Of a DNA stretch of 64,000 nucleotides, positions 3,968 to 49,468 are shown piece after piece. The DNA is taken from NCBI GenBank assembly GCA_041654895.1, contig JBAZCR010000001.1:11057-75056 (forward strand), given 5' to 3'. Source of the DNA: Candidatus Pacearchaeota archaeon (lineage in GTDB: Archaea > Nanobdellota > Nanobdellia > Pacearchaeales > GW2011-AR1). A program made the position numbers and the translations under genes. Every line of letters begins with the position of its first letter. Positions within the stretch are counted from its first letter, which is position 1. The notes under the pieces are model-generated. The model made no database searches. It saw nothing but the letters and a program-made list of their open reading frames with translations, and was not told the origin of the DNA.

Positions 3968-3971
3968 AAAT

Positions 3972-4054: not shown

Positions 4055-4066
4055 TTAAAATAAAAA

Positions 4067-9682: not shown

Positions 9683-9704
9683 AACTAAATAAAAGGAGGG
9701 GTAT

Positions 9705-10220: not shown

Positions 10221-11053
10221 TACAGATTCAGAGAATCTATTGGGCTTTTTATCTTTTTCAGTTCCTGAGTTGATATATGGGTGTATATTTGAGTTGTTGA
10301 TAAATTTGAATGACCTAATAATTCTTGGATTTTCCTTATATCTACATTATTCTCTAATAAATGGGTTGCGAAAGAATGTCTAAGTGTATGACAATGAACT
10401 CTTTTGTTTATATTTGCTTTTCTTGCAGCAGTTGTAACAATTTTTTGAATATTCCTTGTTGTCAACTTTTGTTTTGGACCTGAAAATAGGTAGATATTAT
10501 TATACTTTTTTTGTTTTTCCACTTGTTCCTTTAAATCCTCCATTAAAAAAAGAGGCAAATTAAAAATTCTATCTTTATTTCCTTTTGATTGTTTTATACG
10601 TCCTACTCTTTCATTAAAATCTAAATCATCTAGCCTTAAATTAACCAACTCTGAAACTCTTAAGCCACATGCGTACATTAAAGATATGATCAATTTTGAC
10701 TTTTCGTTGTTTGTTGAATTTATTAGGAATTTTATTTCATCTTTTGTTAAGACCGTAGGCAATATTTTATTTTTCTTAGGCCTTTTAACGCCCAAAGTTG
10801 GATCTTGATTTAATAAATTTGAATAAGCATATCTTATTGCAGCTAGAAAAAGAATTATTGAGCTTGAAGATTTATCTGAATATTTTTCTGCTAAAAAAAA
10901 CTTTATGTCTTCTGTATTTATCTGATTTGGGTTCTTTTCTAAGAAATCTATTAATTCGCTATTAGCTCTTAAATAATTTCGAATAGTATAATTTGAATTT
11001 TTTGTTATTTTTAATTCTATTTCTAATTTTTTTAAAAAATCTTCTTTATTCAT
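10220..11053 (-). CDS. xerA: Tyrosine recombinase XerA (XerC/D family)
   Basis: C-terminal catalytic box HTLRHSFATHLLENNVDIRKIQELLGHSNLSTTQIYTH, with R..K..H..R..H/W..Y residues. 277 aa, as for archaeal XerA. Confidence 0.8.
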   Translation of the reverse strand: MNKEDFLKKLEIELKITKNSNYTIRNYLRANSELIDFLEKNPNQINTEDIKFFLAEKYSDKSSSSIILFLAAIRYAYSNLLNQDPTLGVKRPKKNKILPTVLTKDEIKFLINSTNNEKSKLIISLMYACGLRVSELVNLRLDDLDFNERVGRIKQSKGNKDRIFNLPLFLMEDLKEQVEKQKKYNNIYLFSGPKQKLTTRNIQKIVTTAARKANINKRVHCHTLRHSFATHLLENNVDIRKIQELLGHSNLSTTQIYTHISTQELKKIKSPIDSLNL

Positions 11054-25936: not shown

Positions 25937-26767
25937 CTAAAATAAAAATAGAAGATAAGTAATTAAATTATCTTTAAATAATAAATAACAAACAAAAGCT
26001 ATTGCAAAGGCAGGTGCAAAGGGAATTCCTTCTTTTATAGTAACAGATTTTTTACTCTTTTGTATTAACTCTAATTCTTTTAATGAAATGCCTTTAAAAT
26101 CAGATTTTATTATTCTATTTTTTATTTTAATATTACTTGCTAACCAATCGCCTTGTTTTAAATCCTTTACATTAATTTTCTTTGTTAAAACTTTTTCTTG
26201 TAAGATTTTTGCAATAGAGAATAAAACTGGTGTAATTAAGAGTAAAATGGGGACTAGAATTAAAGTATTATTAATAAACGTTAGAGGAGTTGTTAATATT
26301 GAAAGGACTAAAAATAATTTTATTTTGTTTTTGATAAACTCTTTTCTTATTTCTTCCTTTATTTTCTTGAAATTTTTAAAATAAAGGAAAATCAAAAATA
26401 GAAGTCCATATATGCTGCCTGAAAAAATTAGTAAAATTAGGAAGAGAATTATATTTGAAAAAACTAATTTTATTTGGTTTGTTACAAATAATGGTGTTAA
26501 GGCTATAAGAAGATGATAATCACCTCCAGCAAAAATATTTGAATAATAAAGTATGTTTGCTAACAAAAATACTCCTACGAAGGTTATTAAAAAATAAATG
26601 AGAATTAAATATTCTTTGGTGATTAACGATTTTAAGATAAGATAAATTGCTCCAGAAATAAAAATTAATAAATTTAACCAATTATCTATTTCTCTTCTTT
26701 TAATATCTTGGATTATTGCTAATACTAATCCAAAAGAAATCACGCCAATTAAAAAAGAATTAATCAT
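25937..26767 (-). CDS. A24-family prepilin/preflagellin peptidase (PibD/FlaK-like)
   Basis: Polytopic membrane protein. Asp residues at about 21 (IIQDIKRREID) and about 83 in FAGGDYHL (GGD motif), spaced as in PibD D23/D80. Terminal gene of a pilin operon. Confidence 0.6.
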   Translation of the reverse strand: MINSFLIGVISFGLVLAIIQDIKRREIDNWLNLLIFISGAIYLILKSLITKEYLILIYFLITFVGVFLLANILYYSNIFAGGDYHLLIALTPLFVTNQIKLVFSNIILFLILLIFSGSIYGLLFLIFLYFKNFKKIKEEIRKEFIKNKIKLFLVLSILTTPLTFINNTLILVPILLLITPVLFSIAKILQEKVLTKKINVKDLKQGDWLASNIKIKNRIIKSDFKGISLKELELIQKSKKSVTIKEGIPFAPAFAIAFVCYLLFKDNLITYLLFLF

Positions 26768-26909
26768 CTTTACTTTTACTTTTATTTTGTTCTTCTATTT
26801 TTTCTAAATTAATTGTCCTATATTTTCCACCTTTTTTATAAACTCTATATTGTCTTTTTCTTTTAAGATCTTTTTTTGTTTTTCTTTTTTCTGTTGAATT
26901 TAGTTTCAT
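26760..26909 (-). CDS. Small basic hypothetical ORF, translationally coupled to the peptidase gene
   Basis: 49-aa ORF MKLNSTEKRKTKKDLKRKRQYRVYKKGGKYRTINLEK... Its stop overlaps the peptidase ATG (GATGATTAA). Not in the ORF track and could be spurious. Confidence 0.2.
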   Translation of the reverse strand: MKLNSTEKRKTKKDLKRKRQYRVYKKGGKYRTINLEKIEEQNKSKSKDD

Positions 26910-26919
26910 TTTTATTTTC

Positions 26920-27447
26920 CTAGCAATTTATATTATACTCTTTATTATAAGTATAATCTAATATTGTTTTAAATTTTACTTTTTCAAATTGGCTTTTTTC
27001 TGAATCTAAGGGTTCTAAAATTATTTTTTTATTTAAATTTTTTCTAGATATTATTAAGTTTTCATTCTCTATTTTAATAACATAAAGTTCTTCGCAAAAG
27101 TTAATCCAACTTTCTTTATTTTGCCAACTTGATTCCACTATTCTTTGGTTGTCAACATATAAATCTTCTTTTAAGTATTCAGAATAAGGTTCTAATTTCT
27201 CACAAAAATTGATTTTATTAAACCTTTCATTAGGTGAATCCTCACAGAATAGTTCTTTAATTAATTTTTCTTCATTATACTCAAAAATTCTTTGTTTGTC
27301 TTCTATTAATAATACTTTAATTGGAGAAATTAAAGAAGCGTTTATATTTTTTTGATTTTGAATATACCCTAAAAAGACTAAACCTAAAAAAAATAAGGTA
27401 ATTAAAACAAGATACAATGAGAACAATTGTCCTTTTTTATTTTTCAT
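26920..27447 (-). CDS. Type IV pilin-like protein (class III signal peptide)
   Basis: MKNKKGQ-LFSLYLVLITLFFLGLVFLGY: short basic n-region, KG/Q cleavage-like site, then about 20 hydrophobic residues. Confidence 0.5.
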   Translation of the reverse strand: MKNKKGQLFSLYLVLITLFFLGLVFLGYIQNQKNINASLISPIKVLLIEDKQRIFEYNEEKLIKELFCEDSPNERFNKINFCEKLEPYSEYLKEDLYVDNQRIVESSWQNKESWINFCEELYVIKIENENLIISRKNLNKKIILEPLDSEKSQFEKVKFKTILDYTYNKEYNINC

Positions 27448-27992
27448 CTTAAAATTTCCTTATAAAAATTTAGTTTTATTGAAGAAATATCTTTCTCTTG
27501 ATTTAAAAGATTTAAACTTTTTTGATATTCTGAATCTTTTAGATTATTTAATAATTCAAAATTTTCTTTAGAGATTGTTCTTCCTGAACCACCGTCTAAG
27601 ATAATAGAATGTATTGTCATACCCTGTCCCTTCTTTGAATCAAGTTTAATTGAATTTAAAGAGATTAATTTTTCCTCTTGAATTAAATATAATTTTCCTC
27701 CTGAATCTAATAGTTCAATTGACTTAAAATTTTCATTACTTATTTCAAAGATGGCCAAATTATTTTTGATGAATTTGTTATTTAACTTGTCTTCTGTATT
27801 TTGTTCTAATATTTGATTAAATAATATCTGATAAAAATCCAGAGCTAATTTATCTTGGCTTATCGGGTTGTGACTTTTATTTTTGATGGTAGAACTAAAT
27901 ACCAAAGAGAGAATTAGTAATATAATAATGATTATTGTTGCTATAAACAAAGATAAAAAACCTCCAATAAGTGCCCTCTTATTCATTAACAT
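27444..27992 (-). CDS. Type IV pilin-like protein
   Basis: MLMNKRALIGGFLSLFIATIIIIILLILSLVF class III-like N-terminus. Stop/start overlap with neighbours. Confidence 0.5.
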   Translation of the reverse strand: MLMNKRALIGGFLSLFIATIIIIILLILSLVFSSTIKNKSHNPISQDKLALDFYQILFNQILEQNTEDKLNNKFIKNNLAIFEISNENFKSIELLDSGGKLYLIQEEKLISLNSIKLDSKKGQGMTIHSIILDGGSGRTISKENFELLNNLKDSEYQKSLNLLNQEKDISSIKLNFYKEILR

Positions 27993-28458
27993 AAACCTCT
28001 AAATTTAGTTTTGTTTTTTTGTCATTTAATATAATTGTATTTTCAATTGAGGAATAACCTTGTTTAAATTCTCCTAAATCTTTTGTATTTGTTTTTAATA
28101 TTTCGTTTACCCATGATCTTCCATCATCACCGAACATTATTGTTTCTTCGTCTAATTTTATACTTATAAAATATTTATTGTATAATTCGTCTTCAGTATT
28201 ATATTTGAAATCACAATATTTTAAAATATTTGAATTAAAATCTTTTTTTATTTTTTCAATATTAAATTCTTCAGCATCCCTTATACAATTTGTTATTTTT
28301 TTTGATAGGATTATTGCCTCACTATCTTTAACATTGATATTAGGCATATATATTCCATTTGAAATTCCCATAATTAAAAGTACCACTATTATTAATAAAA
28401 AAATTCTATACATCGTTACAATAGACTCGCCTATTGCCTCTGCTTTTTTATTTTTCAT
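27979..28458 (-). CDS. Type IV pilin-like protein
   Basis: MKNKKAEAIGESIVTMYRIFLLIIVVLLIMGI class III-like N-terminus. Confidence 0.5.
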   Translation of the reverse strand: MKNKKAEAIGESIVTMYRIFLLIIVVLLIMGISNGIYMPNINVKDSEAIILSKKITNCIRDAEEFNIEKIKKDFNSNILKYCDFKYNTEDELYNKYFISIKLDEETIMFGDDGRSWVNEILKTNTKDLGEFKQGYSSIENTIILNDKKTKLNLEVYVNE

Positions 28459-28814
28459 TTTATCTGGATTATATATTCAGTTTGATCTTCATCTTCAATT
28501 AATTGAATTAAGTGTTGTGTTATAATTGGATATCCTCTCAAAGATACAAGCCCGTCTATTTGAATAAAAATTTTATTATCTTTAATCTCTATTTTACTAA
28601 TATATCCATTAACATTATTTTTTTGAATAATAAAATTCATTCCTGGTATTGCAGAGTCTATTAAAAGTGCTGTTTGTTTTTCTAATACTTGTTGTTTTAC
28701 GCTTCTACTATCTATTTTGGAAGATAAATTTAAAATAAATAATGTGGTGATTAATAAAATTAAAATTAGGTGAACAATTACTTCTTGCATACTAGTCCCT
28801 CTTTTATTTTTCAT
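28455..28814 (-). CDS. Type IV pilin-like protein
   Basis: True start is probably the internal ATG giving MKNKRGTSMQEVIVHLILILLITTLFIL. The track's start at 28862 is a TTG. Confidence 0.5.
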   Translation of the reverse strand: MKNKRGTSMQEVIVHLILILLITTLFILNLSSKIDSRSVKQQVLEKQTALLIDSAIPGMNFIIQKNNVNGYISKIEIKDNKIFIQIDGLVSLRGYPIITQHLIQLIEDEDQTEYIIQIK

Positions 28815-28815
28815 T

Positions 28816-28929
28816 TTAATTGAATAGTTTAAATAGCGAATAAATTCCAAGTGAAGTTGCAACTATTATTGCTATATAAATAATCCATTTAATTATCTCG
28901 TCTGTTGATTGTGCTTTTTTATTTTTCAT
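28816..28929 (-). CDS. Small pilin-like protein (37 aa)
   Basis: MKNKKAQSTDEIIKWIIYIAIIVATSLGIYSLFKLFN. Not in the ORF track. Sits between two pilin genes with coupled overlaps. Confidence 0.35.
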   Translation of the reverse strand: MKNKKAQSTDEIIKWIIYIAIIVATSLGIYSLFKLFN

Positions 28930-29746
28930 TTCTTAATTTATAATTTTGTATATTATACCTTATTGATACCTGATCTTTGTATATAATGCACTCTTCTATT
29001 TGGTTTTGATAAAATTCCTTTTCTTTATTTTTATCCAATTTAAACTCTTCAAAATATTCTTCAATTAGAGATTCACAATTAGAAGGAGTATTCAAAAGAG
29101 ACTCTAATTTTATTGTTTTTGATCCTGATATGCATTCTTGATAAAACTCATTATAATCGTAAGTAGAATATAGTTTTGAACAGAAATCCTCTATTTTGGA
29201 TTCATCCTTTACAGAACTAATTATTTTTTCAAGAGTTACATCTCCATTATTTACTATTTTTAAATTATAATTATTATCTTCAAAGTTTATTTTGATTCTT
29301 GTTAGTGTATCTAGAGCTATAAAATTATTTTCTATATTTACTTTTTCTTTTATATTTATGCACTTCTCACAGATAACTATTTTATCTTGGATATTCTCGG
29401 TTGAACAAACACATAATTGGTTTTTTTTACTAAAGAAATTTGTAGTTAATGCATCGTTAAACTCTTTAATTTCAATCTTATTTTTATCCTGAAAATTAAC
29501 TAAAAAATATCTTTCTTTATTAGATAATTCTTGGTAGATAGTTATTTCTGATGTTGAATATTTTTTTGCTTCTTCAATCGAGTTTTCTATTTGTGTAAAT
29601 AAGCTTTGAAGAATTTGGTCTGATTTACTTTCTCTTAATAAGAAGGATAATGCTAAAGATAATAAGGTTACTACAACAATTACTCCGATTATTAGTCCAA
29701 TAGAAGTTTCTGATAATAATGAAGAACCTCTTTTAGTTTTATGCAT
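28919..29746 (-). CDS. Larger pilin-like protein with Cys-containing C-terminal domain
   Basis: MHKTKRGSSLLSETSIGLIIGVIVVVTLLSLALSF N-terminus. First gene of the minus-strand pilin operon. Confidence 0.5.
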   Translation of the reverse strand: MHKTKRGSSLLSETSIGLIIGVIVVVTLLSLALSFLLRESKSDQILQSLFTQIENSIEEAKKYSTSEITIYQELSNKERYFLVNFQDKNKIEIKEFNDALTTNFFSKKNQLCVCSTENIQDKIVICEKCINIKEKVNIENNFIALDTLTRIKINFEDNNYNLKIVNNGDVTLEKIISSVKDESKIEDFCSKLYSTYDYNEFYQECISGSKTIKLESLLNTPSNCESLIEEYFEEFKLDKNKEKEFYQNQIEECIIYKDQVSIRYNIQNYKLRNEK

Positions 29747-29835
29747 GATATAATTAGAATTATTTGATTAATAAAAATATGGGTTTATCCTGTTTTTTAA
29801 ATATGTTTTTTATATACTTTTGATTAAGATGGTTT

Positions 29836-30864
29836 ATGGGTTTGGGATTTAAAAAAATACTTTCTGGAAGTTTGATTGGTTTAAGTTTATTATTCCCTTC
29901 TTATGCAGATACATATGATTTTTTATTTTCTGGAGAAGAGAGATGTATAATATATAATTCTCCTATTGTAGATAGTTTAAAAAATAGTCCTGGAAGAAAA
30001 AATTTAGAATCAAAATTATTTTATGATACTGGAGACTTTTTTGATTCTTATGAAGGAAATTTTATTAATTATGGTGAGTTTATAGGAAAAGATAAATTTG
30101 ATCATTCTACTGGTATTTACTTTTGTTTTAAAAAAGATTCAAATAATTCTTTTATTTTTTCATATTTTAATAGAGGAGATAATTCAATTAGTTTAAGAGA
30201 TAGAACAAAACTTTTACCTTTGAGTTCTTATACTTTTGTGGAAGATAGAAATAATACTTTTCTATATCTTGTCCTGCCAAAGAAAGTTGGTTTAGAAAAA
30301 TTAGAACAAACTTTATTTGTTTTAGAAAAGAATCAGTCCCAGTTAACATATATTAAGGCCTATCCTAATGAAGAAACCCAAGTTTACAAATTTTTTGAAA
30401 ATTTAGATAATTATCTTGAAAGTAAATTAGGTAATCTTGAAACAGATATAACTAAATTAGAAGACCTTGAAGAAGAATATTTTACAAACATTTCTCATGA
30501 AAGTCCTTATGTTTCTTTGCTTCGAAAAATCCCTGGAAAAGCAGGTGTTTTGATTGATTATACGATTTTCTTAGGCAAACTTTTTAGTGAAATTAAAGAA
30601 GATCAAAGGAAGAAAATACTTCAAGAAGAATTTGGTGGGAATTATGATTTTTATAGAATTCCATTTTATGATAGCAAAGAGGGATTTAATCCTTTTATTG
30701 TAGGAAGGGGAATAAGATGGGACTTAGACTTAAAAGATCTTAAATGGTATGATGCAGGATATTTAGCAATTCCTTTAATTACATTTAATAAACAAGATAA
30801 AAACTTAGAACAATCCTCTTTAGAAAATATGTTGTTTAAATTTGAATTAAATCCTTTTTTATAA
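29836..30864 (+). CDS. Secreted hypothetical protein (Sec signal peptide)
   Basis: MGLGFKKILSGSLIGLSLLFPSYADTYDF: signal peptide with an A-D cleavage-like site. Confidence 0.4.
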   Translation: MGLGFKKILSGSLIGLSLLFPSYADTYDFLFSGEERCIIYNSPIVDSLKNSPGRKNLESKLFYDTGDFFDSYEGNFINYGEFIGKDKFDHSTGIYFCFKKDSNNSFIFSYFNRGDNSISLRDRTKLLPLSSYTFVEDRNNTFLYLVLPKKVGLEKLEQTLFVLEKNQSQLTYIKAYPNEETQVYKFFENLDNYLESKLGNLETDITKLEDLEEEYFTNISHESPYVSLLRKIPGKAGVLIDYTIFLGKLFSEIKEDQRKKILQEEFGGNYDFYRIPFYDSKEGFNPFIVGRGIRWDLDLKDLKWYDAGYLAIPLITFNKQDKNLEQSSLENMLFKFELNPFL

Positions 30865-30868
30865 CCTT

Positions 30869-32719
30869 TTAACAAACTTTATTTAGATATTCAATGATAG
30901 TACTCATATCTTTTTTTATTTCTACTGGAACTGTAGTAAAATAAACTTTATTACCAGAATCTATTTCATTCCAATTTCCATCTTTAAATTCAAACATTTT
31001 TAAATCAGGGTAATCTATTTCTAATACATCTTTATCTTTATTTTTTGAAATCCCATATTTCTTATCTATACTTAGCATCATACGTCCATCTCCATAATCA
31101 AATAATTCTATTTCCTTCTCTTGCTTAGATAGATAGCTCTGAAAAAGTTGTTTTATACGTTCTGTTTCATCTTGATTTTGTGTTAGATTTGACACTAAAT
31201 ATTGATAGAATTCTTCTTTATTTTGTTCATTTAAAGGATTAAATGAATATGATAAATATTGTTTTTCGCCAATAAAATTAGTGGTAACTGTTCCGTGATA
31301 TACGCTATATTTATTGTCTGACATTTTTAGTATTTCATTTATTACATCATTTATTGTTTCTATATCTCTTTTGAATATCCAGAAACCTTTCTTTAAACTT
31401 TTTATTTCTTCTTCTGAGCTAGAAAATTTTTCTTTTAAATACCACTTTTCTCCATTTTTTATAATCAATGTTCCTGGTTTCGATTCACTATTTTTTTTCA
31501 TTTTAAAATTGTCTACAAAAATATAATAGATATCATTTTTAGAAAAAATCTTGTTTAAAATACTCTTTTCTTCTAGTTTTTCGCATCTTTTAACATCTTC
31601 TGATTTACTAATTATTTTTGGACACTTATTATTATAACAAACTATTTTTGTTGTGCTCCCTGATTTTACTTCTGTAAGTGCTATAAAGCATTCACAATCT
31701 TCTCCATCTAAAGCACATTTATACTTTTTATTACAAACTATTTCGTCTTCTTGAGTTTGTAAATTTTTATTTACTTTTTCTATATACTCCTTAAAGGTTG
31801 TAGTTCTTATCTCAAGAATACACTCTTCTAAATATTTATTATTTTTAATCCACTCTTTTTGGTTTAAATTAAGAGAGCTTTCATATTCTGAAATTAGTTT
31901 TATTTTATTCTCCCTAGTTACATGTCCGACAACACCTAAAGAATACCATAATCTTCCGAATTCATCTAAATATGCACTATTTTGCTTTTTATTATTAATA
32001 TACAAATACCATTTATGATAAGGATATTTTTCAAAAGGTTTTTTTATATCGTTTGATAATGAAGGATAATATTGCGTAAGGCCTCCAGACGATTCTATAT
32101 TAAAATAAGTATTTTGACAATAATTGGGATTTTTCACTTCAAAATCATCACAAAAATATCCTATTGGACAATCTTCATTTGAGTTGCATGTTTCTGGTAG
32201 TTCCTCTGTTGTTTCTGGATCTATTTCTTTTGAAAAATCTTCTAGAATCTTTTTTAGAATCTCAAAATTTTCATTTGTTTCTACTTCTTCTTTAATTTCT
32301 TCTGAATTTGTTTTTGTTATAGCTTCCCATTTGCCTTCAGGAGTATTAGAATTTTCTCCTTGTGATTGTGTATGATCTGTGTTTTCTAAAAATCTATATA
32401 TCCCTGTAGTATTAATTTTAAATTTTGAACTTGGACCTATCTTTTTGTCTAAGGTCAATTTACATTCACTTGGGCAAATTTCTAAATGACCTTGAAATTC
32501 TTTTTCATTTACACTTTTTTCAAAGCATAATCCTTCTTCAGTTGTTTTTCCTTTTTGATTAAAAAAAATTAATATTTTGTCCATTTGAGAACCCATTTTT
32601 TGAATCCCACTGACCAACCAACCGTTATATGCTCCTACAGCAATTAGAACTAGTAATAATAAGGCCATTATAATTACAACTAATTTACTTACCGTCATTC
32701 CACCTCCTTCTTCTGCCAT
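30869..32719 (-). CDS. Large Cys-rich surface protein with pilin-like N-terminus (candidate pilus-associated adhesin)
   Basis: MAEEGGGMTVSKLVVIIMALLLLVLIAVGAYNGW N-terminus, 616 aa, with many Cys pairs (CNKKYKCALDGEDCECF, CYNNKCPKI, CNSNEDCPIGYFCDD). Confidence 0.45.
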   Translation of the reverse strand: MAEEGGGMTVSKLVVIIMALLLLVLIAVGAYNGWLVSGIQKMGSQMDKILIFFNQKGKTTEEGLCFEKSVNEKEFQGHLEICPSECKLTLDKKIGPSSKFKINTTGIYRFLENTDHTQSQGENSNTPEGKWEAITKTNSEEIKEEVETNENFEILKKILEDFSKEIDPETTEELPETCNSNEDCPIGYFCDDFEVKNPNYCQNTYFNIESSGGLTQYYPSLSNDIKKPFEKYPYHKWYLYINNKKQNSAYLDEFGRLWYSLGVVGHVTRENKIKLISEYESSLNLNQKEWIKNNKYLEECILEIRTTTFKEYIEKVNKNLQTQEDEIVCNKKYKCALDGEDCECFIALTEVKSGSTTKIVCYNNKCPKIISKSEDVKRCEKLEEKSILNKIFSKNDIYYIFVDNFKMKKNSESKPGTLIIKNGEKWYLKEKFSSSEEEIKSLKKGFWIFKRDIETINDVINEILKMSDNKYSVYHGTVTTNFIGEKQYLSYSFNPLNEQNKEEFYQYLVSNLTQNQDETERIKQLFQSYLSKQEKEIELFDYGDGRMMLSIDKKYGISKNKDKDVLEIDYPDLKMFEFKDGNWNEIDSGNKVYFTTVPVEIKKDMSTIIEYLNKVC

Positions 32720-32883
32720 TAGAATCCAAACCTGAATATGTTTTTAATTGAATTTATAATTTCAGTCCCTTTTCCACTAAGTAATATATAAATTGCAAAA
32801 GCCATAATTGCTATAAATAAAAATAATAAAATTCCTTTAATGAGATAATCTATCTCTAAATCTCCTCTTTTATTTGTTTTCAT
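32719..32883 (-). CDS. Small pilin-like protein (54 aa)
   Basis: MKTNKRGDLEIDYLIKGILLFLIAIMAFAIYILLSG... Its stop overlaps the ATG of 30869..32719 (TAATG). Not in the ORF track. Confidence 0.35.
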   Translation of the reverse strand: MKTNKRGDLEIDYLIKGILLFLFIAIMAFAIYILLSGKGTEIINSIKNIFRFGF

Positions 32884-32920
32884 AAAATAACAATTGTTTT
32901 ATATTTAATAAATATTTAGT

Positions 32921-33247
32921 CTAATCGCATAATTTCGGACAAGATTTTATTTCAAATCCTTCAAATGATTGAATAGATAATTTTTCACATGTTTCTTTTA
33001 TTTGTTTTTCTTCATTTATTTTTAATTTTTGAATATCCTTACAATATGTTTTGACATCTTTTTGAATGCAAGCTAATTCACATTTATTTTGAATTACTTC
33101 TATATTTTGTTCATATGAGCCTAAAATATTAATCTTTTGTCCTATTGTTTTCCATTGTCCTGTTACACTAATTATGACTACAATAAGTACAAGAAGGATT
33201 AAGATTAATGTAACAACTAAATTTATTTGTGCTTTTTTTAATTGCAT
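32921..33247 (-). CDS. Pilin-like protein with Cys-containing globular part
   Basis: MQLKKAQINLVVTLILILLVLIVVIISV, then a 4-Cys domain. Confidence 0.45.
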   Translation of the reverse strand: MQLKKAQINLVVTLILILLVLIVVIISVTGQWKTIGQKINILGSYEQNIEVIQNKCELACIQKDVKTYCKDIQKLKINEEKQIKETCEKLSIQSFEGFEIKSCPKLCD

Positions 33248-33293
33248 AAAAGAATTGAGAATTTATATTTAATAAAGGTTTTGAAAATAAAAG

Positions 33294-33737
33294 TTAACAA
33301 AGGCCAGGGCATTCTTCAAAAATATTTGTTAATTCAAACCTATCGTCTGTTGCTAGAGAATTACAAGTTACTTTTATATAAACTGGTTCATAATCTTTCT
33401 TTTCATTATCTTCTAATTTATTATAGTCTTCAATTGTTTTTTTTATGTCTTCTTTTTTATGTTTGTATTCTTCAATAACTTCTGATTTTATTTTAGAACC
33501 ATCTTCTTTTATAATTTCTCTTTCTGCATTACAAAATCTATAAGCGTCTTGACTTTGACATGCCATTAAACAGGCCTGAGCAATCTCGTTAACATTTGTT
33601 TTTCCACCACCAAAGATATTTACTTTATTCCAAAAATTTCCCCATCCAGTAGAAAAGCCATAAATTAAAAATACTAAAATAGCAACAGCCAAAACTATTG
33701 CAATAATAGTTGTAATTGTCATTTCACCTTTTTTCAT
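33294..33737 (-). CDS. Pilin-like protein with Cys-containing globular part
   Basis: MKKGEMTITTIIAIVLAVAILVFLIYGF, then a 6-Cys domain. Confidence 0.45.
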   Translation of the reverse strand: MKKGEMTITTIIAIVLAVAILVFLIYGFSTGWGNFWNKVNIFGGGKTNVNEIAQACLMACQSQDAYRFCNAEREIIKEDGSKIKSEVIEEYKHKKEDIKKTIEDYNKLEDNEKKDYEPVYIKVTCNSLATDDRFELTNIFEECPGLC

Positions 33738-41841: not shown

Positions 41842-44034
41842 ATGAATTATAGTGTTGACGATAAGGCCGAAGACATACTTAAAAAATATAGTGCCAAAAT
41901 TGAAAAACAAATGAATCAAACGAACAGAGATTCCTTTAATTCATCAAAATTTTCTAAAAGTTATGAACAATTTAGAAAAGCAATGACTCCTGAATTTAGT
42001 CGATATGAGGGGTGGTGTAAAACTGTTGGTAATTTTATAAAAGTTAAAGCTAGTGAAAAAGATAGGATAAATATAGAAAAGAATATTAATATTTCTCATT
42101 TAAATGTTACCTCTTCGGAAGTTATGGGGTTAGCTGTTTTTATTATGCTTTCTTCTCTATTTGGTGGTTTTTTAATTTTATTAAGTGTTTATTTTATAAC
42201 TAATAAATTCAATCTTCTTTTTTTATTTTTAATTTTTATTCTAAGTTTATTTTTACTTACTTTTTATTCAAAAGCTCCTGAGAGACTTGCGATGAAGTGG
42301 AGATTAAAAGCTGGTAGTCAAATGGTTCCTGCGGTTTTGTATGTTGTCATTTACATGAAGCATACTAGTAACTTAGAAAAAGCAGTTGCTTTTGCTGCAG
42401 AAAATTTAGAAGATCCTCTATCAACTGATTTTAGGAAAGTTTTTTGGGATGTTGAAGTAGGTAAATTCTCTACGATAAAAGACAGTTTAGACAATTATTT
42501 AGAGAATTGGAGAGATTATTCTTTAGAGTTTATTGAGGCATTTCATTTAATTGAATCTAGTTTATATGAGTCTAACGAAGGAAGAAGAGTAGAAATTTTA
42601 GAGAGAAGTCTTCAGGTTATATTAGATGGTGTTTATGATAAAATGTTGAAATATACTCATGAAGTTAAGAGCCCTTTAACAAATGTTTATATGTTGGGAA
42701 TTGTTTTACCAACTCTTGCTTTAGCAATTTTACCTCTTGCTTCTACAATGGTCGGGGATCTTTTTCAAACATATCATTTAGTTTTGATGTTTAACATAAT
42801 TATTCCTTTGCTTGTTATTTATTTGACTTATAATGTAATGATGCAAAGGCCAGGGGGTCATGGTAATAGTGATTTATTAAAAAAGAATCCATTATATCCT
42901 AATTATGCTGATAAAAAGCATATAATTAAGGGTTTTATTTATTCAATCCCTTTCTTTTTAATTGGGTTATTTCCTTTAATTTGGATGTACTTTCCAATAC
43001 ATAAATTTTTAGGAATGCCAATTGATTTGACTTTTGGAGATTTAGGTTTTAATTTTATGAAGAATACTTTTTTATTGGGGATTATGGAGTCTGGTGTTAA
43101 ACCTGGTTCTTATATTGGTCCTTTTGGCCCACTGTCGGTAATTATGGGAATATTTCTTCCATTAGGTATTGCTAATGTGTTTATTTATTCTTCTAAAAAA
43201 AGAACTGCTGAATTGGTTAAAGAAAAGAAAAAATATAATGAGGTTGAGAGTGAATTTACTTCTTCTTTATTTCAATTAGGAAATAGAATTGGAGATGGTT
43301 CTCCTGCTGAAATTGCTTTTGGGAAGGTTTCTGAGTCTAGTAGGGGAACGGCTACTGAAGGTTTTTTTAGGATTGTTAATGAAAATATTAATAGGTTTGG
43401 AATGAATTTAGATAGGGCTTTATTTGATTCTAAAAGAGGTGCTGTTATTTTTTATCCATCTCATTTAGTAATCACATCTATGAGGATATTAGTTGAATCT
43501 GTTAAAAAAGGTTTAAAAGTCGCTGCACGAAGTTTAATGAGTATTTCTGAGTATGTGAAAAATATTAGAAAGGTTGATGCAAGATTAAATGATTTATTGG
43601 CAGATATTATTAGTGATATGAAGAGTAACATGACTTTTTTAGCTCCTTTATTAAGTGGAATAATTGTAGGATTAAGTGGAATGATTACATTGATTTTAGG
43701 AAATCTGAAAAATTTGATGGGTTCTTTAGGTTCGGGAAATGAATTAACAAGTAGTTTTGGAAACCTTTCTGATATAATGAGTATGTTTCAATTAGAGACT
43801 ATGATTCCTACTTATTGGATTCAGGTCGTTGTAGGAATTTATTTAATCCAGGTAGTTTTTATATTGACCTCAACACTAGTTACTATAAAAGCAGGTAAAG
43901 ATGATTTAATGCAAACTGTTGAAATAGGAACTAATCTTAAAAAAACAATTCTTCTTTATATTCTTGTTTCAATTATTTCTACTGTTGCTTTAACATTAGT
44001 TGGTGGAATTGCATTAATTGGCTTAGGCGTTTAG
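41842..44034 (+). CDS. TadC/FlaJ/GspF-like type IV pilus membrane platform protein
   Basis: Two T2SSF-like cytoplasmic domains (...NLEKAVAFAAENLEDPLSTDFRKVFWDVEVGKFSTIKDSL... and ...EFTSSLFQLGNRIGDGSPAEIAFGKVSESSRGTATEGFFRIVNEN...) alternating with TM bundles. 730 aa. Confidence 0.55.
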   Translation: MNYSVDDKAEDILKKYSAKIEKQMNQTNRDSFNSSKFSKSYEQFRKAMTPEFSRYEGWCKTVGNFIKVKASEKDRINIEKNINISHLNVTSSEVMGLAVFIMLSSLFGGFLILLSVYFITNKFNLLFLFLIFILSLFLLTFYSKAPERLAMKWRLKAGSQMVPAVLYVVIYMKHTSNLEKAVAFAAENLEDPLSTDFRKVFWDVEVGKFSTIKDSLDNYLENWRDYSLEFIEAFHLIESSLYESNEGRRVEILERSLQVILDGVYDKMLKYTHEVKSPLTNVYMLGIVLPTLALAILPLASTMVGDLFQTYHLVLMFNIIIPLLVIYLTYNVMMQRPGGHGNSDLLKKNPLYPNYADKKHIIKGFIYSIPFFLIGLFPLIWMYFPIHKFLGMPIDLTFGDLGFNFMKNTFLLGIMESGVKPGSYIGPFGPLSVIMGIFLPLGIANVFIYSSKKRTAELVKEKKKYNEVESEFTSSLFQLGNRIGDGSPAEIAFGKVSESSRGTATEGFFRIVNENINRFGMNLDRALFDSKRGAVIFYPSHLVITSMRILVESVKKGLKVAARSLMSISEYVKNIRKVDARLNDLLADIISDMKSNMTFLAPLLSGIIVGLSGMITLILGNLKNLMGSLGSGNELTSSFGNLSDIMSMFQLETMIPTYWIQVVVGIYLIQVVFILTSTLVTIKAGKDDLMQTVEIGTNLKKTILLYILVSIISTVALTLVGGIALIGLGV

Positions 44035-44654
44035 AATGTTAGAGTAATCATGAAAAAAAGAATTGTTAAGACTGTTGTAAATGTCCATAATTTTTTACTT
44101 CCAAAAAAGAGTTTACTTCCATCTAAATTTGATAAAGGTAATAAAGACCATAATGCAAAATAAATACTAATTTTACTCAATAAAAAAAAATTAAAAAAAT
44201 AACTAATAAGACAAATTAAAATTAAAGAGATTATTGAAATGCAAGTGATTTGTGCTTTTTCCCATTCTGTAACTTCTGAATATCTATGCATCCCTTTATA
44301 CTTTGTAACTCTTTCAATTGTCTTTTCTTCTTTTGTAATTAATATTGGCATCCATAATATTGTTCCCTTTGAGACGAAAGATAACATTAAAGGTAACCAA
44401 GCCATTGTTAAAGGTTTTTTTAGATGTCCTTTTTCCAATAAAGATGTTTGATAGATAGACCAAAATTGAAAATTTAATTTAATATTTAAATAATTTGCAA
44501 AGATTTTTTTAGAGATTATACTTATAGATAAAACAATTGTAAAAATAAAAAGGATATTAAAGAAATTTGTATTATCTTTGAATGTATAAGATATTGATAA
44601 AATAATTATCGCTACTAAAATACTCAAAAGTTCATTAATCTTTTCTTGGTCCAT
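44031..44654 (-). CDS. Polytopic membrane protein with an M50-like LDG motif but no HExxH
   Basis: LLPLSNLDGSKLF resembles the site-2-protease NxxPxxxLDG motif. No zinc-binding HExxH was found, so probably not catalytic. Confidence 0.3.
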   Translation of the reverse strand: MDQEKINELLSILVAIIILSISYTFKDNTNFFNILFIFTIVLSISIISKKIFANYLNIKLNFQFWSIYQTSLLEKGHLKKPLTMAWLPLMLSFVSKGTILWMPILITKEEKTIERVTKYKGMHRYSEVTEWEKAQITCISIISLILICLISYFFNFFLLSKISIYFALWSLLPLSNLDGSKLFFGSKKLWTFTTVLTILFFMITLTF

Positions 44655-45313
44655 TATTTCTTCTTAGTAGAACTACTTTTTCTTTCATTTGTTTTTTGTA
44701 ATTCTCTATAATTATCTATTAATGGGTTCATTAATTTTGAAGTTGTATCATGTAAAGATTCTAAATCCTTCTTAATTATTTGAGTATTTTCTCCAAACTC
44801 CCCAATCTTTTGAATAATTGCTTGTTGTAATTTATCTATTGTTGATTCAATTCTTTTTAATCTTGTATTGATGTCGTCTACTTTGTCTTGTATAGTATTT
44901 TTGAAGCTGACAATATCACCTGTTTTTTTATTATATTCTCTAAATTTTTCAGATATCACTTGTTCGGTAATTTCAGTTATGGTTTCTGTATCAAAAGAAG
45001 GTTGTTGATAATATTCTTCTCCTGAATATGCTTGAGGTGTTTGAGTATAATAATTTTCTTGAGGGTAATTTTCTTGTTGGGGATCATTATATTGTTGATT
45101 CTGGTTAAAATCCTGAGGCTGATTAAAATTTTGGGGTTGGTTAAAAGGGTCTTGTTGATTTTGTGTATCCATTGGTTGAGTTGTTATTTTTATTTGATTT
45201 ATCGCGTCATTTATTTGTGTTGGGTTATATCCTTGTCTTTGAAGATTTTCAAAGATTCCTTGATTGGAAATTCCTTGACTTTGCATCTCTGCTATTATAT
45301 CTAATAATTCCAT
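44654..45313 (-). CDS. Q/N-rich low-complexity plus coiled-coil protein
   Basis: Central QNQQDPFNQPQNFNQPQDFNQNQQYNDPQQENYPQENYYTQTPQ tract, followed by a heptad-repeat C-terminus. Confidence 0.3.
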   Translation of the reverse strand: MELLDIIAEMQSQGISNQGIFENLQRQGYNPTQINDAINQIKITTQPMDTQNQQDPFNQPQNFNQPQDFNQNQQYNDPQQENYPQENYYTQTPQAYSGEEYYQQPSFDTETITEITEQVISEKFREYNKKTGDIVSFKNTIQDKVDDINTRLKRIESTIDKLQQAIIQKIGEFGENTQIIKKDLESLHDTTSKLMNPLIDNYRELQKTNERKSSSTKKK

Positions 45314-45317
45314 TTTA

Positions 45318-45710
45318 CTATTTATTTCTTTTGGTTAAGTTGTTTTTTGTTTCAAGGAATTTTTTATTAATTATTTCTTCTAAGTCTTTCATCCTAACAA
45401 ATTCTAGGGGTTGAAAATCTTTTAACATTCTTTCTACTTTATTCATTTCCTCTTTTTTTATATATTTTCCAGTTTCATTAATTAAAGCATTAGTTAAGGA
45501 TTTTAATCTTTCAATGTCTCTTTCCATTTGCGTTGTTTTTTGCTTTAGAATTTTTATTTCTTCTTTTATTTCTTCTTTGAAATCAATTAGATTTTTACTG
45601 ACTATATGAGTTCGTTCTTTTATTATTCTATTTCTTTCTTCTAAATCCCTAATTCTTATACTAACATCATTTGAATAAGGTTGTGTTTGAGGATTATTAT
45701 CACCAGCCAT
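45318..45710 (-). CDS. Coiled-coil hypothetical protein
   Basis: 130 aa, predominantly heptad-repeat charged sequence. Confidence 0.3.
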   Translation of the reverse strand: MAGDNNPQTQPYSNDVSIRIRDLEERNRIIKERTHIVSKNLIDFKEEIKEEIKILKQKTTQMERDIERLKSLTNALINETGKYIKKEEMNKVERMLKDFQPLEFVRMKDLEEIINKKFLETKNNLTKRNK

Positions 45711-46215: not shown

Positions 46216-48480
46216 ATGTTTAAAGAAAATAGTCCATTATATTCCTTTGATATTGTTCGAGAAAGTGGAGAGAATGTAGCTTATGTTAATTATCTTGGAG
46301 CTAATTATGTTCCAAATTTAGCAGATTATTTTGATGTGATGGCTAGGACTGTTGATCTTTTAATGGAAGATTCTAATATAAGTCGGATTGTTTATGTTCA
46401 ACAAAGAAATTATAGTCATAATTTTGAACAAGTGAATATGTTAATTGAGGTAGCACAGTTATATAATCATCTTACAAAGCAGGAAAAAGTTGTTTCTATT
46501 GCTGTTTTAGAAAAATTAGGTTATTTTTATGAAGAGGCTTATTCTTTTTTGAATTATATTATTAATGAGGTTTTAAAAGGAGATCCTGTTAGAGCTTATA
46601 GAGAATTAAAAGGCGCCTTATTTGAACAAAGAGCACTATCTGAAAAAGGCTATGATAATATTAATTATTTGAGATTAATTGAAAAAATAATCAATTCTTT
46701 TGATAGACTTTTATTGATTCAAAAATCCAAAGAGTTATTTAACAATTTTAAAATTGGAGACAGAGGGGTTTATTCTGATTTTTTTAGATCAGATATTATG
46801 CCTAATTTTACTTTCACTAGGATGATTGCAAGTTTACCTAAAAATGCTGAAATAATTAAAGAGTATGAAATTGCTAAAAATTATGATAAGAGTATAGTAA
46901 CCATTTTTAAGGAACCAAATAAAACTAAATTTTATTATCATTTAGTCCCACCAGAATATAACTTGAGTGAAGATTATCATATGCTTCTTAATTTAGCAAG
47001 AAATGTTTTAATAGAACATAAGCCAACACAAGAGGAATTTAATGATAGTCAAAGGACAAGAAGTGTTTTTTTGAATGTTAGTAAAGATTTATTGAGGGAT
47101 TTAGCGAATAATAAGGGCATTAATTTGTCTTATGATGATTTAAATTTATTATCTAATATCCTTGTTAGACATACTATTGGCTTTGGTGTTTTAGAGGTTC
47201 TTTTAGAGGATGAATCATTACAAGATTTGATGATTAACGCACCTGTTAGTTTGACTCCTATTTTCGTAAGACATAATGATTATGGAGAATGTGCTACAAA
47301 TTTAATTCCTTCAAAAGAAGATGCTGATTCTTGGGCTACTAAATTTAGAATGAGTAGTGGGAGGGCATTAGACGAAGCAAATCCTATTTTAGATACTAAT
47401 TTAGAATTACCTAACTCTAGTGCAAGAGTCGCAATAATTCAACAACCCTTAAGTAATGGGGGGCTTGCATATGCTTTAAGAAGACATAGAAATAAACCTT
47501 GGACATTGCCTTTATTTATGAAAGTAAATATGATTGATGGGCTTGGTGCAGGACTATTAAGCTTTATTATTGATGGAGCTAGAACATTATTAGTTGCAGG
47601 AACAAGGTCTAGTGGTAAAACTTCTTTGCTTGGTAGTTTGCTATTAGAAATTATGCCTAATTTAAGAATTATAACTATTGAGGATACATTAGAATTACCT
47701 GTTGCTGAAATGAGAAGACTTGATTATGATATATTGAGTATGAAAGTTAGAAGTTCATTAGGAGGAGAAAGTAATGAAGTTGACGCTAGTGAAGGTATTA
47801 GAGCTAGTCTACGTCTTGGTGATTCTTCTTTAATAGTCGGTGAAATTAGGAGTGAAGAAGCAAAATCATTATATGAAGCAATGAGAGTTGGTGCTCTAGC
47901 AAATGTTGTTGCAGGTACAATTCATGGTGGAAGTCCTTATTCTGTTTTTGATAGGGTTGTTAATGATTTACAAGTTCCCATTACAAGTTTTAAGGCAACA
48001 GACCTGATTATTGTTTGTAATCCTGTTAAATCTGTTGATGGTTTACGTTCTTATCGAAGAGTTTTGTCTATTAGTGAAGTTAGGAAACACTGGGAAAAGG
48101 ACCCTTTGAGCGAGGGGGGATTTGTAGATTTGATGAAGTATGATGTTTATGAAGACAAATTAAAACCTACCGATGATTTGATAAATGGTGATTCAGAAAT
48201 CTTAAAAGAGATTGCTGCAAATGTTAAAGGTTGGGCTGGAAATTGGGATGCTGTTTGGGATAATATTCTTCTTAGACAAAAGATAAAAGAAGAACTAGTT
48301 AATGTTGCAACAAAACTAAATAATTTTGATTTATTAGAAGCAGAATTTATAGTTAAATCAAATAATGCTTTTCACCAAATAAGCAATCAAGTCAGCAATG
48401 AGTTTGAATTACCTAAAAGTGAAGAAGTTTTTCCAAGATGGAAGAAATGGTTAGAAAAAGAAATTAAAAATTACCTTTAA
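46216..48480 (+). CDS. Type IV pilus / archaellum-type assembly ATPase (FlaI/TadA/VirB11 family) with a long N-terminal extension
   Basis: Walker A LVAGTRSSGKTSLLGSLL, ITIEDTLEL, Asp-box/Walker B, LIVGEIRSEEA, and His box. 754 aa against about 550 for FlaI. Confidence 0.75.
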   Translation: MFKENSPLYSFDIVRESGENVAYVNYLGANYVPNLADYFDVMARTVDLLMEDSNISRIVYVQQRNYSHNFEQVNMLIEVAQLYNHLTKQEKVVSIAVLEKLGYFYEEAYSFLNYIINEVLKGDPVRAYRELKGALFEQRALSEKGYDNINYLRLIEKIINSFDRLLLIQKSKELFNNFKIGDRGVYSDFFRSDIMPNFTFTRMIASLPKNAEIIKEYEIAKNYDKSIVTIFKEPNKTKFYYHLVPPEYNLSEDYHMLLNLARNVLIEHKPTQEEFNDSQRTRSVFLNVSKDLLRDLANNKGINLSYDDLNLLSNILVRHTIGFGVLEVLLEDESLQDLMINAPVSLTPIFVRHNDYGECATNLIPSKEDADSWATKFRMSSGRALDEANPILDTNLELPNSSARVAIIQQPLSNGGLAYALRRHRNKPWTLPLFMKVNMIDGLGAGLLSFIIDGARTLLVAGTRSSGKTSLLGSLLLEIMPNLRIITIEDTLELPVAEMRRLDYDILSMKVRSSLGGESNEVDASEGIRASLRLGDSSLIVGEIRSEEAKSLYEAMRVGALANVVAGTIHGGSPYSVFDRVVNDLQVPITSFKATDLIIVCNPVKSVDGLRSYRRVLSISEVRKHWEKDPLSEGGFVDLMKYDVYEDKLKPTDDLINGDSEILKEIAANVKGWAGNWDAVWDNILLRQKIKEELVNVATKLNNFDLLEAEFIVKSNNAFHQISNQVSNEFELPKSEEVFPRWKKWLEKEIKNYL

Positions 48481-48954
48481 TTATTTTGCTTTTTTTGTTA
48501 GTTGAACAGAAACAATTATGGCTATAATTATTGTTATTAAAAAACTAAACCAACTATTTGAGCCTGTCTCTTCAAAGAAGTTCCAATTAATTGTCCAATG
48601 AAAAATATATGACGATGTAGTAATGAATAGTATAATTAATATAATAACTACTAGCCATTTTAACCAATTTGCTTTTGATAGGAAATCTAATGGTTTTTCT
48701 GAAGGCAAAAATGCAATTAGTATTAAAAATAAAAATACTAGGAGAATTATAACTGTTACCCAAGAAGTTGTTAATGCAATAAAATCAACTAATTGAACTT
48801 CTACTATAAAGAATATTGCAAAAATAAAAGAAATTAATAAACTTACAATTTCTGCATCTCCAAGTATTTTAGTCTTTTTTAAAATTGCATATACTACAAT
48901 AAAGACTAAGAGAAATGAGGCAATAGGTAGGAGTAGTCCAAATGGTGTTGCCAT
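48481..48954 (-). CDS. Small 4-TM membrane protein, paralog family member B
   Basis: LLVFIVVYAILKKTKILGD motif shared with 48956..49468 and 58913..59407. Confidence 0.35.
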   Translation of the reverse strand: MATPFGLLLPIASFLLVFIVVYAILKKTKILGDAEIVSLLISFIFAIFFIVEVQLVDFIALTTSWVTVIILLVFLFLILIAFLPSEKPLDFLSKANWLKWLVVIILIILFITTSSYIFHWTINWNFFEETGSNSWFSFLITIIIAIIVSVQLTKKAK

Positions 48955-48955
48955 T

Positions 48956-49468
48956 TTATTCTGTTGTTGGAGTATTAGTTCCTTTTTTAGTTGTTAAGTA
49001 GATAATTAATACAATAATTCCTAATACAATAATTCCCCAAATATAATCTTTTAAAAAATAGAATGGACTTAATGTACTAAACCAGTTATTCCAACTTGTT
49101 AATGCCCACAATACTATTGATATTGCAATAACCCAACCTATCCATCCAACTTTTTTAATCCAATCTTTAGTATCATTATCCTTATAGTAAAAGAAACTTA
49201 AAAAAATAATTATTACTAAAAATATTGCAAGCCCTACTCCAAATTTTGGAAAAATATTTGCAAAAAAATAAGATACTGTATTAAATTGTAGTGCTAATAA
49301 GCCTATGGCTATAGAAATAATTACTTTTATTGCATTATTATCACCAAGCAATTTTGATTTTTCTAAGATAGCATAAACAACAGCAAAAATTAATAGGAAT
49401 GGTATAACATACGAAAAAAATCCAATATTATTTAATTGATTTATTATTTCTGATGTTGTAAAAGCCAT
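48956..49468 (-). CDS. Small 4-TM membrane protein, paralog family member A
   Basis: LLIFAVVYAILEKSKLLGD motif. Tandem with 48481..48954. Confidence 0.35.
   Translation of the reverse strand: MAFTTSEIINQLNNIGFFSYVIPFLLIFAVVYAILEKSKLLGDNNAIKVIISIAIGLLALQFNTVSYFFANIFPKFGVGLAIFLVIIIFLSFFYYKDNDTKDWIKKVGWIGWVIAISIVLWALTSWNNWFSTLSPFYFLKDYIWGIIVLGIIVLIIYLTTKKGTNTPTTE

Follow-up and report, generated by a model that had tools for sequence, protein, structure and literature searches.

The Epd pilus operon of Methanococcus maripaludis comprises 11 genes, including several minor pilins, a very small major pilin and its own class III peptidase, and all of these genes are needed for piliation (PMC3875500; preprint 10.64898/2026.04.22.720090). 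Type IV filament (TFF) system 1, which is defined by two platform genes, has been reported in some DPANN archaea (preprint 10.64898/2026.04.22.720090). In this study, we analyzed a stretch of 64,000 nucleotides from a Candidatus Pacearchaeota archaeon (assembly GCA_041654895.1, contig JBAZCR010000001.1, positions 11,057 to 75,056; hereafter the window, GC content about 26%), in which ten pilin-like open reading frames (ORFs) lie upstream of a prepilin peptidase gene between positions 25937 and 33737 (the battery). The results indicated that this region is probably the pilin-and-maturation part of a complete archaeal type IV filament or pilus machine. All four TFF core components are present, because class III subunits, an A24 peptidase, an ATPase and a platform protein were all found.

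Among described systems, Epd/system 1 is the nearest. Both it and our locus have a multi-gene operon, their own class III peptidase, multiple distinct minor pilins, an ATPase and a platform. Unlike Epd/system 1 with its two platforms, the window has one platform of 730 aa (M730), which has no Pfam match. Its pilin families are unrelated in sequence to those of Epd and do not match the Pfam models of archaeal pilins, and neither the microprotein B49 nor the Sec protein embedded on the opposite strand (S342) has been described for Epd.

Bacterial type IVa pili (T4aP) and type II secretion systems (T2SS) use ordered sets of four to five non-homologous minor pilins (FimU-PilVWXE with PilY1; GspHIJK), which are regarded as primers of assembly with a place at the filament tip. 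The locus resembles them in having a fixed, ordered, non-homologous set; the T4aP set is also linked to a large non-core adhesin. According to a structural model, the platform of the window appears to share the PilC/GspF cytoplasmic-domain fold with these systems. The differences are a single archaeal membrane without secretin, a peptidase without the methyltransferase domain of PilD, pilins without sequence similarity to N_methyl-type pilins, and a large protein, P616, that is itself pilin-like and modular rather than a PilY1 beta-propeller. Measured against the 11 genes of Epd and the four to five minor pilins of bacteria, the statement in the preliminary description of this DNA that the pilin repertoire is much larger than a simple pilus needs was overstated.

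Class III N-termini of the pilin-like proteins

Class III signals were scored with our own re-implementation of a FlaFind-style test, which combines [KR][GA], an allowed residue at +1/+2 and a 14-residue window with a Kyte-Doolittle mean of at least 2.3. Nine of the ten pilin-like ORFs of the battery passed, as did Q622, a 622-aa protein encoded just outside this range. All true N-terminal class III matches in the 64 kb were confined to 26.9-35.8 kb, and the remaining matches were internal starts deep within longer ORFs. The preliminary description had counted at least 11 class III ORFs in the range; the number is corrected here to ten pilin-like ORFs, nine of them canonical, and Q622 is an eleventh just beyond the range.

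The exception is P616, whose leader (MAEEGGG/MTVSKLVV, where the slash marks the predicted cleavage site) is acidic and non-canonical, and the same leader was found in its four homologues. Proteins at the operon position of P616 in other loci begin with KKG/S.EWTVGKLL, indicating that P616 is a derived member of a class III family. The preliminary description is corrected on this point.

We then compared the locus with related genomes. A scan for relatives of the peptidase (7-sequence alignment, one genome per species) yielded 80 loci from metagenome-assembled genomes (MAGs) labelled Pacearchaeota, Woesearchaeota, Nanoarchaeota and a few other DPANN names. Family counts refer to the 43 loci in which 9 kb or more were available upstream of the peptidase, and the hidden Markov models of the families were built from the window proteins. 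Across the related loci, 390 of 456 family members (86%) had [KR][GA] immediately ahead of their first hydrophobic segment. Among control ORFs of these loci that have a hydrophobic segment at the N-terminus, the share was 29/189 and 9/66 (14-15%). This is an approximately sixfold enrichment, and the N-termini of the battery do not behave as ordinary anchors. Moreover, about one third of the orthologues of the micro-pilin P54 are leaderless and start with MEMEE..., at most one residue away from the +1 position predicted for the orthologues with a leader (KRG/VISEY...), which provides independent support for the cleavage site.

Prepilin peptidase

The peptidase matched Pfam Peptidase_A24 (PF01478) with 36.1 bits (gathering cut-off 26.5), and its C-terminal part gave a sub-threshold Arc_PepC match (19.9 bits). 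A phmmer search against the PDB returned FlaK (3S0X) as the sole match (E 6e-8). In this alignment, IQD21 fell on the first catalytic Asp of FlaK (VQD) and AGGD83 on the Asp of its GGGD motif, which we take to be D18 (VQD18) and D79 (GGGD79), respectively. An alignment of the peptidase with its homologues (26 sequences, down to 24% identity) showed that D21, E26, G81, D83 and G206-D207-W208 are invariant. Thus, the FlaK/PibD-type peptidase proposed earlier at the end of the battery was confirmed. Of the two findings that the preliminary description named as refuting its reading, ordinary Sec or TM anchors at the N-termini and a missing Asp pair in the peptidase, neither was obtained.

The score against the NCBIfam FlaK equivalog NF040695 was 35.5 bits (cut-off 330), which makes the protein a member of A24 but not a FlaK equivalog. 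Since it starts directly at transmembrane segment 1 (TM1), it lacks the N-terminal domain of bacterial PilD. Like FlaK/PibD (MEROPS A24B), it is a polytopic aspartic protease of the membrane: TM1 holds the first Asp, a GxGD-type motif the second, and a soluble domain gives the weak Arc_PepC match. Unlike that of FlaK, its gene closes a pilin operon, directly after the gene of B49. To judge from this operon linkage, the peptidase may be dedicated to the battery. It is 100% identical to an NCBI entry named 'A24 family peptidase [Candidatus Pacearchaeota archaeon]', and the gene also occurs on contigs of several metagenomes, with digester and landfill samples among the sources (for example JGI 3300015214 and ENA ERZ2647912).

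Secretion ATPase and platform protein

The ATPase matched PF00437 (T2SSE) with 57 bits (cut-off 24.9). Its best NCBIfam matches were FlaI (140 bits, cut-off 550) and TadA (121 bits), both below the equivalog cut-offs. Walker A (GTRSSGKT, residue 462) and Walker B (LIVGEIR, residue 539) are intact. In the window, 12.5 kb separate its gene from the battery; in related genomes, the gene adjoins that of M730 (L017, L056, L069, L073, L076, L078).

Homologues of M730 number more than 3,300 (about 60% identity); nearly all are unnamed, and a few JGI records carry the label 'TadB'. The window and 39 related loci each had a single M730 gene (720-735 aa). An AlphaFold2 model built from 50 homologues reached a mean predicted local distance difference test score (pLDDT) of 75.6 and a predicted TM-score (pTM) of 0.73, and Foldseek matched it to EpsF and OutF at probability 0.97-0.99 with a target TM-score of 0.66-0.75. 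The predicted PilC/GspF fold points to M730 as the platform component of the TFF machine.

Conservation of the operon

In the 43 loci, a median of 6 class III ORFs lay upstream of and co-directional with the peptidase; the figures for comparison were 0.1 for the opposite strand and, downstream, 0.7 per 10 kb. The consensus gene order was [C219 and C130, divergent], ATPase, M730, P147-type, P54, P616-type, P275, P37, (a long P119-like gene), P119, P159, P182, P175, B49 and peptidase. Out of the 10 pilin families, a median of 7 was found per locus, and P119, P159, P175 and B49 stood in this order in 31/31 loci. The battery is usually contiguous with the ATPase and platform genes in related loci, and the window is collinear with the consensus except for its displaced ATPase and M730 genes. 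Profile comparison of the ectodomains showed that P147 and P108 are related, whereas all other pairs are unrelated. The presence of eight unrelated ectodomain families indicates a fixed multi-subunit set rather than a recently amplified or duplicated repertoire.

Gene layout of the battery

On the minus strand, from 33737 to 25937, 12 ORFs are chained in the order P147, P108, P54, P616, P275, P37, P119, P159, P182, P175, B49 and peptidase (Table 1). Start and stop codons overlap as TAATG at P54/P616 and as ATGA at P119/P159 and P182/P175, and longer overlaps were found at P275/P37 (11 nt), P159/P182 (14 nt) and B49/peptidase (8 nt), in agreement with the chaining by short overlaps noted before. 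S342, on the plus strand, sits between P616 and P275, and because it splits the chain, there must be at least two transcription units.

An identical TATA-like 15-mer, TTTATTAAATATAAA, was found on the minus strand at 33262-33276 and 32898-32912, each copy 14 nt 5' of an ATG (P108 and P54, respectively); counting both strands, these are its only two copies within the window. A TTTATAAA element lies 21 nt 5' of the P147 ATG. We infer that the TATA-like elements of P147, P108 and P54 may be promoters for leaderless mRNAs.

The Cys-rich domains mentioned in the preliminary description were recovered: P147, P108, P616, P275, P175 and P159 contain 6, 6, 16, 8, 4 and 2 Cys, respectively, against a background of 1.18%. 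All of these numbers are even, as are those of S342 (2), Q622 (10) and Q1607 (34), which are not among the ten pilin-like proteins. Even Cys numbers fit disulfide-bonded extracellular domains.

Table 1. Positions of the battery genes and associated genes within the window (/ marks the predicted cleavage site)
Feature	Description	Position	Strand	Basis or remark
P147	Class III pilin MKKG/EMTITTIIAIVLAVAILVFLIYGFSTGW..., 6-Cys ectodomain; candidate major pilin	33294..33737	-	Motif; family
P108	P147 paralogue MQLKKA/QINLVV..., C-terminal CPxLC	32921..33247	-	Ectodomain hhalign
P54	Helix-only micro-pilin MKTNKRG/DLEIDYLIKGILLF...IKNIFRFGF	32719..32883	-	Conserved family
P616	Large modular pilin-like protein, N-terminal helix and 16-Cys ectodomain; candidate tip adhesin	30869..32719	-	Operon position
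S342	Sec-signal secreted protein, 342 aa	29836..30864	+	Embedded on opposite strand in battery; no Pfam domain
P275	Class III pilin-like MHKTKRG/SSLLSETSIGLIIGV..., 8 Cys	28919..29746	-	Motif; 33/43 loci, same position
P37	Helix-only micro-pilin MKNKKA/QSTDEIIKWIIYIAIIVA...	28816..28929	-	Family 32-48 aa, same operon position in 21/43 loci
P119	Conserved putative minor pilin MKNKRG/TSMQEVIVHLILILL...	28455..28814	-	37/43 loci; mean column identity 60%
P159	Conserved putative minor pilin MKNKKA/EAIGESIVTMYRIFLL..., 2 Cys	27979..28458	-	37/43 loci; C58, C82 invariant
P182	Putative minor pilin M(LM)NKRA/LIGGFLSLFIATIII...	27444..27992	-	Family in 36/43 loci
P175	Conserved putative minor pilin MKNKKG/QLFSLYLVLITLFF..., 4 Cys	26920..27447	-	31/43 loci; always last pilin before B49
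B49	Basic 49-aa microprotein without hydrophobic segment	26760..26909	-	Overlaps peptidase start by 8 nt
Peptidase	A24 aspartic prepilin peptidase, archaeal FlaK/PibD type, 276 aa	25937..26767	-	Pfam; FlaK alignment
Q622	Large class III protein MLLKEGDRKG/QVTLFIIISILIV..., 622 aa	33957..35825	+	Divergent from P147
Q1607	Giant 34-Cys secreted or anchored protein, 1607 aa	35827..40650	+	After Q622; no Pfam match
M730	Polytopic membrane protein, predicted PilC/GspF-type platform	41842..44034	+	Fold match; displaced from battery here
C219 + C130	Coiled-coil cytoplasmic proteins	44654..45710	-	Divergent beside ATPase gene in related loci
ATPase	Secretion ATPase, FlaI/TadA/VirB11 superfamily, 754 aa, long N-terminal extension	46216..48480	+	Pfam T2SSE

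Individual subunits

The P147 family comprises 880 clusters at 50% identity (E of at most 1e-3). Its members share the N-terminal 85 aa or so (KKG/Q.MTIGTII.IVL...VLVFLI.GFSTGWGNLW...NVDTI.QAC..AC......FC), followed by variable C-termini (92-615 aa). P147-type genes are often duplicated and are the first after the platform gene in the closest related loci. The ectodomains of P147 and P108 were matched by hhalign at a probability of 99.5%, with Cys 56/60/69 at identical positions. Three long members of the family (P0223, P0273 and P0276; 522-567 aa) have a conserved HEG[LV]HS motif, similar to HExxH, in their C-terminal extension, a motif that hints at a pilin fused to a metalloprotease-like domain.

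Three tiny ORFs had previously been proposed as pilins. P37 and P54 are pilin-like, whereas B49 has no hydrophobic segment and does not belong with them. The P54 family (45-57 aa) was present in 34/43 loci. The processing motif of Flp pilins is G/XXXXEY, and the P54 family, which is Flp-sized (about 45 aa when mature), recalls it by an acidic residue at +4/+5 that is often followed by Y. The likeness is partial: the family motif KRG/VISEY has E at +4 and Y at +5, the window P54 (KRG/DLEIDY) has D at +5 and Y at +6, and many orthologues are leaderless (MEMEE). Unlike Tad/Flp systems, the locus has a single large platform instead of a TadB and TadC pair, and no other Tad components are present. 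Examples of leaderless members are found at L016:4549-4710, L029:4287-4424, L019:4277-4417 and L011:3603-3740. To judge from their N-termini, such P54-type micro-pilins would not need the peptidase.

Only four non-identical homologues of P616 were found among 5.8 billion proteins. In the closest relative, where the peptidase is 78% identical, the identity of P616 is 40% (in a partial alignment). By this sequence comparison, P616 is the fastest-evolving subunit. An AlphaFold2 model based on the 5-sequence alignment had a pLDDT of 34 and was unusable. As for P119, its start is an internal ATG of a 135-aa ORF, and NCBI has the same 119-aa start.

Homologues of S342 occupy the same embedded position on the opposite strand in L005, L009, L014, L032 and L011. 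The homologue at L014:4823-7378 (-), with 851 aa, carries a Pfam T2SSG domain (bacterial pseudopilin G; 69 bits, residues 659-747), and the window S342 aligns to its N-terminal part only. Among 117 scanned battery proteins of related loci, an isolated weak Pfam MACPF_D2 match (E 1.4e-5) was also recorded, and its carrier was not found in two follow-up scans of 20 candidates.

The B49 family consists of highly basic proteins of 37-71 aa with the consensus MDYGG.ERRKTKKDLKRKRLARGYKRGGQFRT and without a Pfam match. B49 was encoded directly upstream of the peptidase in 78 of the 80 loci. The pairing of B49 and peptidase holds even where no pilins are nearby, for example in L045 (a complete genome).

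Neighboring genes

The window contains Cdc6, both PolD subunits, TFB, ribosomal protein S8e and aEF-1beta, which place the battery in archaeal surroundings. Between the battery and the ATPase and M730 genes lie Q622 and Q1607, TFB and the C219/C130 pair. The N-terminus of Q622 (KGQ/VTLFII) is kept in 5 homologues, and its homologue is paired divergently with a P147/P108-type pilin gene in L009, L010, L012 and L013. The Q622-Q1607 pair was also found in L010 and L013, and neither protein has a Pfam domain. Q1607, which has an internal duplicated segment (40153-40269 and 40393-40509), is probably associated with the pilus system. The arrangement of C219/C130 with the ATPase recurs in L017, L069 and L076 and in part in L073, L078, L083 and L037, and the two proteins are possible accessory factors.

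The ATPase gene is abutted by a pair of genes for small membrane proteins of 157 and 170 aa (48481-49468, minus strand), both multi-pass and without an informative Pfam match. Their homologues were seen in three other loci: beside C219/C130-ATPase in L017, upstream of the ATPase at a distance of about 1.5 kb in L083, and on the downstream side of the peptidase in L031. Farther away, a tyrosine integrase (Phage_integrase, 160 bits) lies beside a recombinase-domain protein at 9125-11053 (-), about 15 kb from the battery, and may be a remnant of an integrated element. A mobile-element origin of the operon was considered and rejected: the integrase and recombinase are 15 kb off with Cdc6 and PolD in between, and the operon itself is part of the chromosome, with synteny across many genomes. 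A tRNA-Leu(aag) was predicted by ARAGORN at 3971-4055 (+), below the Rfam tRNA gathering score, and the other three tRNAs were found by both tools.

Proposed mechanism and alternative explanations

From the class III signatures, the active site of the peptidase, the presence of the ATPase and the platform, and the conservation of the operon, we infer how cleavage, filament formation, the individual subunit roles and host adhesion might come about. The ten pilin-like proteins would enter the membrane via their N-terminal hydrophobic helix, and the A24 peptidase (D21/D83) would cut the short basic leader after [KR][GA] at the cytoplasmic face. The FlaI/TadA-type ATPase would then power the M730 platform, with mature subunits being extracted and stacked helix to helix into a surface filament. 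The shaft would consist of P147/P108, or possibly of the Flp-sized P54; we favor P147/P108 because it is a large, often duplicated family that comes first after the platform and has its own TATA-like elements. P275, P37, P119, P159, P182 and P175, whose order is invariant, may serve as minor pilins, priming assembly and building a complex for initiation or at the tip. Within this set, P119, P159, P182 and P175 are the most conserved in position and sequence and hence the obvious candidates for such a complex. The disulfide-rich, fast-evolving P616 may be a displayed adhesin that touches a surface or host cell.

Several results weigh against this explanation. P616 has no canonical basic leader in this genome, and Pfam and NCBIfam scans found no pilin, archaellin or adhesin domain in any battery protein. 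Pfam scans of 116 battery orthologues from related loci likewise matched no pilin, archaellin or adhesin model, apart from the isolated T2SSG and MACPF_D2 matches given above, and PDB profile searches with the P147, P175, P159 and P119 families returned no solved pilin and nothing meaningful. Since no pilin family matches a pilin or archaellin in Pfam, NCBIfam or the PDB, the assignment as putative pilins is based on N-terminal signatures and gene context. M730 had no sequence match in Pfam, NCBIfam or the PDB, even with the family profile, and hhalign gave a negative result for an internal duplication of the T2SSF type. The ATPase and M730 genes are not contiguous with the battery here but have moved 8-15 kb away and to the other strand. 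Finally, the major pilin cannot be singled out from sequence.

The same genes could instead specify a short pseudopilus for the uptake of DNA or other macromolecules, like ComG, rather than an adhesive pilus, although we regard this as improbable. The comG operon of monoderm bacteria consists of an ATPase, a platform, a major pilin and four minor pilins, and the consensus order of ATPase, platform and pilins resembles comGA-GG. DPANN genomes are also reduced, nucleotide scavenging has been proposed, and type IV pilin-like genes have been reported together with comEC in ultrasmall genomes (PMC9938205). However, no ComEC, ComEA or DprA domain was detected among the scanned window genes, no battery protein contains a DNA-binding domain, and the large, hypervariable, Cys-rich P616 suits an adhesin better than a DNA receptor. 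Slightly less probable still is that the class III proteins are not polymerized at all and are shown singly or as a surface raft, like the Sulfolobus bindosome. Class III binding proteins have been argued to be widespread in archaea (preprint 10.64898/2026.04.22.720090), several battery proteins and Q622 are large, and the ATPase matches BasE, but weakly (68.6 bits), far under the cut-off of 1000 bits. Moreover, no substrate-binding-protein domain was found in the window battery or in the 116 related-locus proteins, no ABC transporter is linked to the operon, and the small or helix-only P54, P37 and P119 are plausible as components of a filament but not as binding proteins.

We consider it very improbable that the N-termini are plain signal anchors or Sec signals of unrelated membrane or secreted proteins that happen to lie beside an A24 peptidase. 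Such a view would account for the lack of matches to pilin domain models and for the Sec-type signal that the embedded S342 does carry, but not for a [KR][GA] enrichment that is kept across orthologues, for a linkage to the peptidase, ATPase and platform that is invariant in dozens of genomes, or for leaderless P54 orthologues that begin at the predicted cleavage site. An archaellum is effectively refuted. The best NCBIfam matches of the ATPase and peptidase are indeed FlaI and FlaK, but both scores (140 versus 550 bits and 35 versus 330 bits) fall far below the equivalog cut-offs, the window battery and the 116 related-locus proteins contain no archaellin domain, and neither the window nor the related loci yielded ArlF, G, H, X or CDE.

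Significance

With a type IV filament machine as the preferred explanation, the operon is the likeliest genetic basis for the surface filaments of related uncultured DPANN archaea. Pili-like appendages between ultrasmall cells and their hosts have been imaged by cryo-transmission electron microscopy in groundwater (PMC7906910). In episymbiotic Saccharibacteria of the Candidate Phyla Radiation (CPR), experiments have shown that the conserved type IV pili drive host binding (PMC11623550). These pili, from organisms that are also ultrasmall and genome-reduced, are the best functional analogy for host attachment, but the likeness is one of lifestyle only, since their subunits are bacterial and not homologous. 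A host-attachment role of the pilus described here may be considered a real possibility, with chances a little short of even. More doubtful, and in our view rather unlikely, is the stronger proposal that the operon represents a DPANN-specific (Pacearchaeota/Woesearchaeota) TFF subtype, that this is the apparatus behind the host-bridging pili, and that P616-type proteins set host specificity. Such a subtype would be marked by the divergent PilC-fold platform, by a fixed set of ten pilin families, two of them helix-only micro-pilins (in part leaderless), by B49 as a basic microprotein linked universally to the peptidase, and by a hypervariable, disulfide-rich modular pilin.

The type of machine is already textbook knowledge, a pilus operon in a DPANN archaeon is no surprise to the specialist, and the known working of type IV filaments is unchanged by this finding. 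What is lineage-specific and apparently undescribed is the ten-family architecture, the platform family invisible to profiles, the leaderless micro-pilin variants and B49. We found no description of this Pacearchaeota/Woesearchaeota operon in a literature search that was incomplete and thus gives weak evidence; it turned up general remarks on pili in DPANN and, from 2026, a classification of archaeal TFF systems. The pilin-like and platform genes that we looked up are named 'hypothetical protein' in the public MAG record, and P37 has neither an NCBI accession nor a name.

The results also contribute profiles for a family of platform proteins that, with more than 3,300 homologues, is still overlooked by current domain libraries. 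DPANN archaea are abundant, nearly all uncultured and thought to be attached to hosts, and the molecules of this contact are largely unknown. The locus provides a concrete, conserved parts list for DPANN surface filaments, comprising an ATPase, a platform, ten pilin families, a peptidase and a microprotein, and offers defined targets for metaproteomics, antibody or cryo-electron tomography labelling, cleavage assays and host-range comparison via P616.

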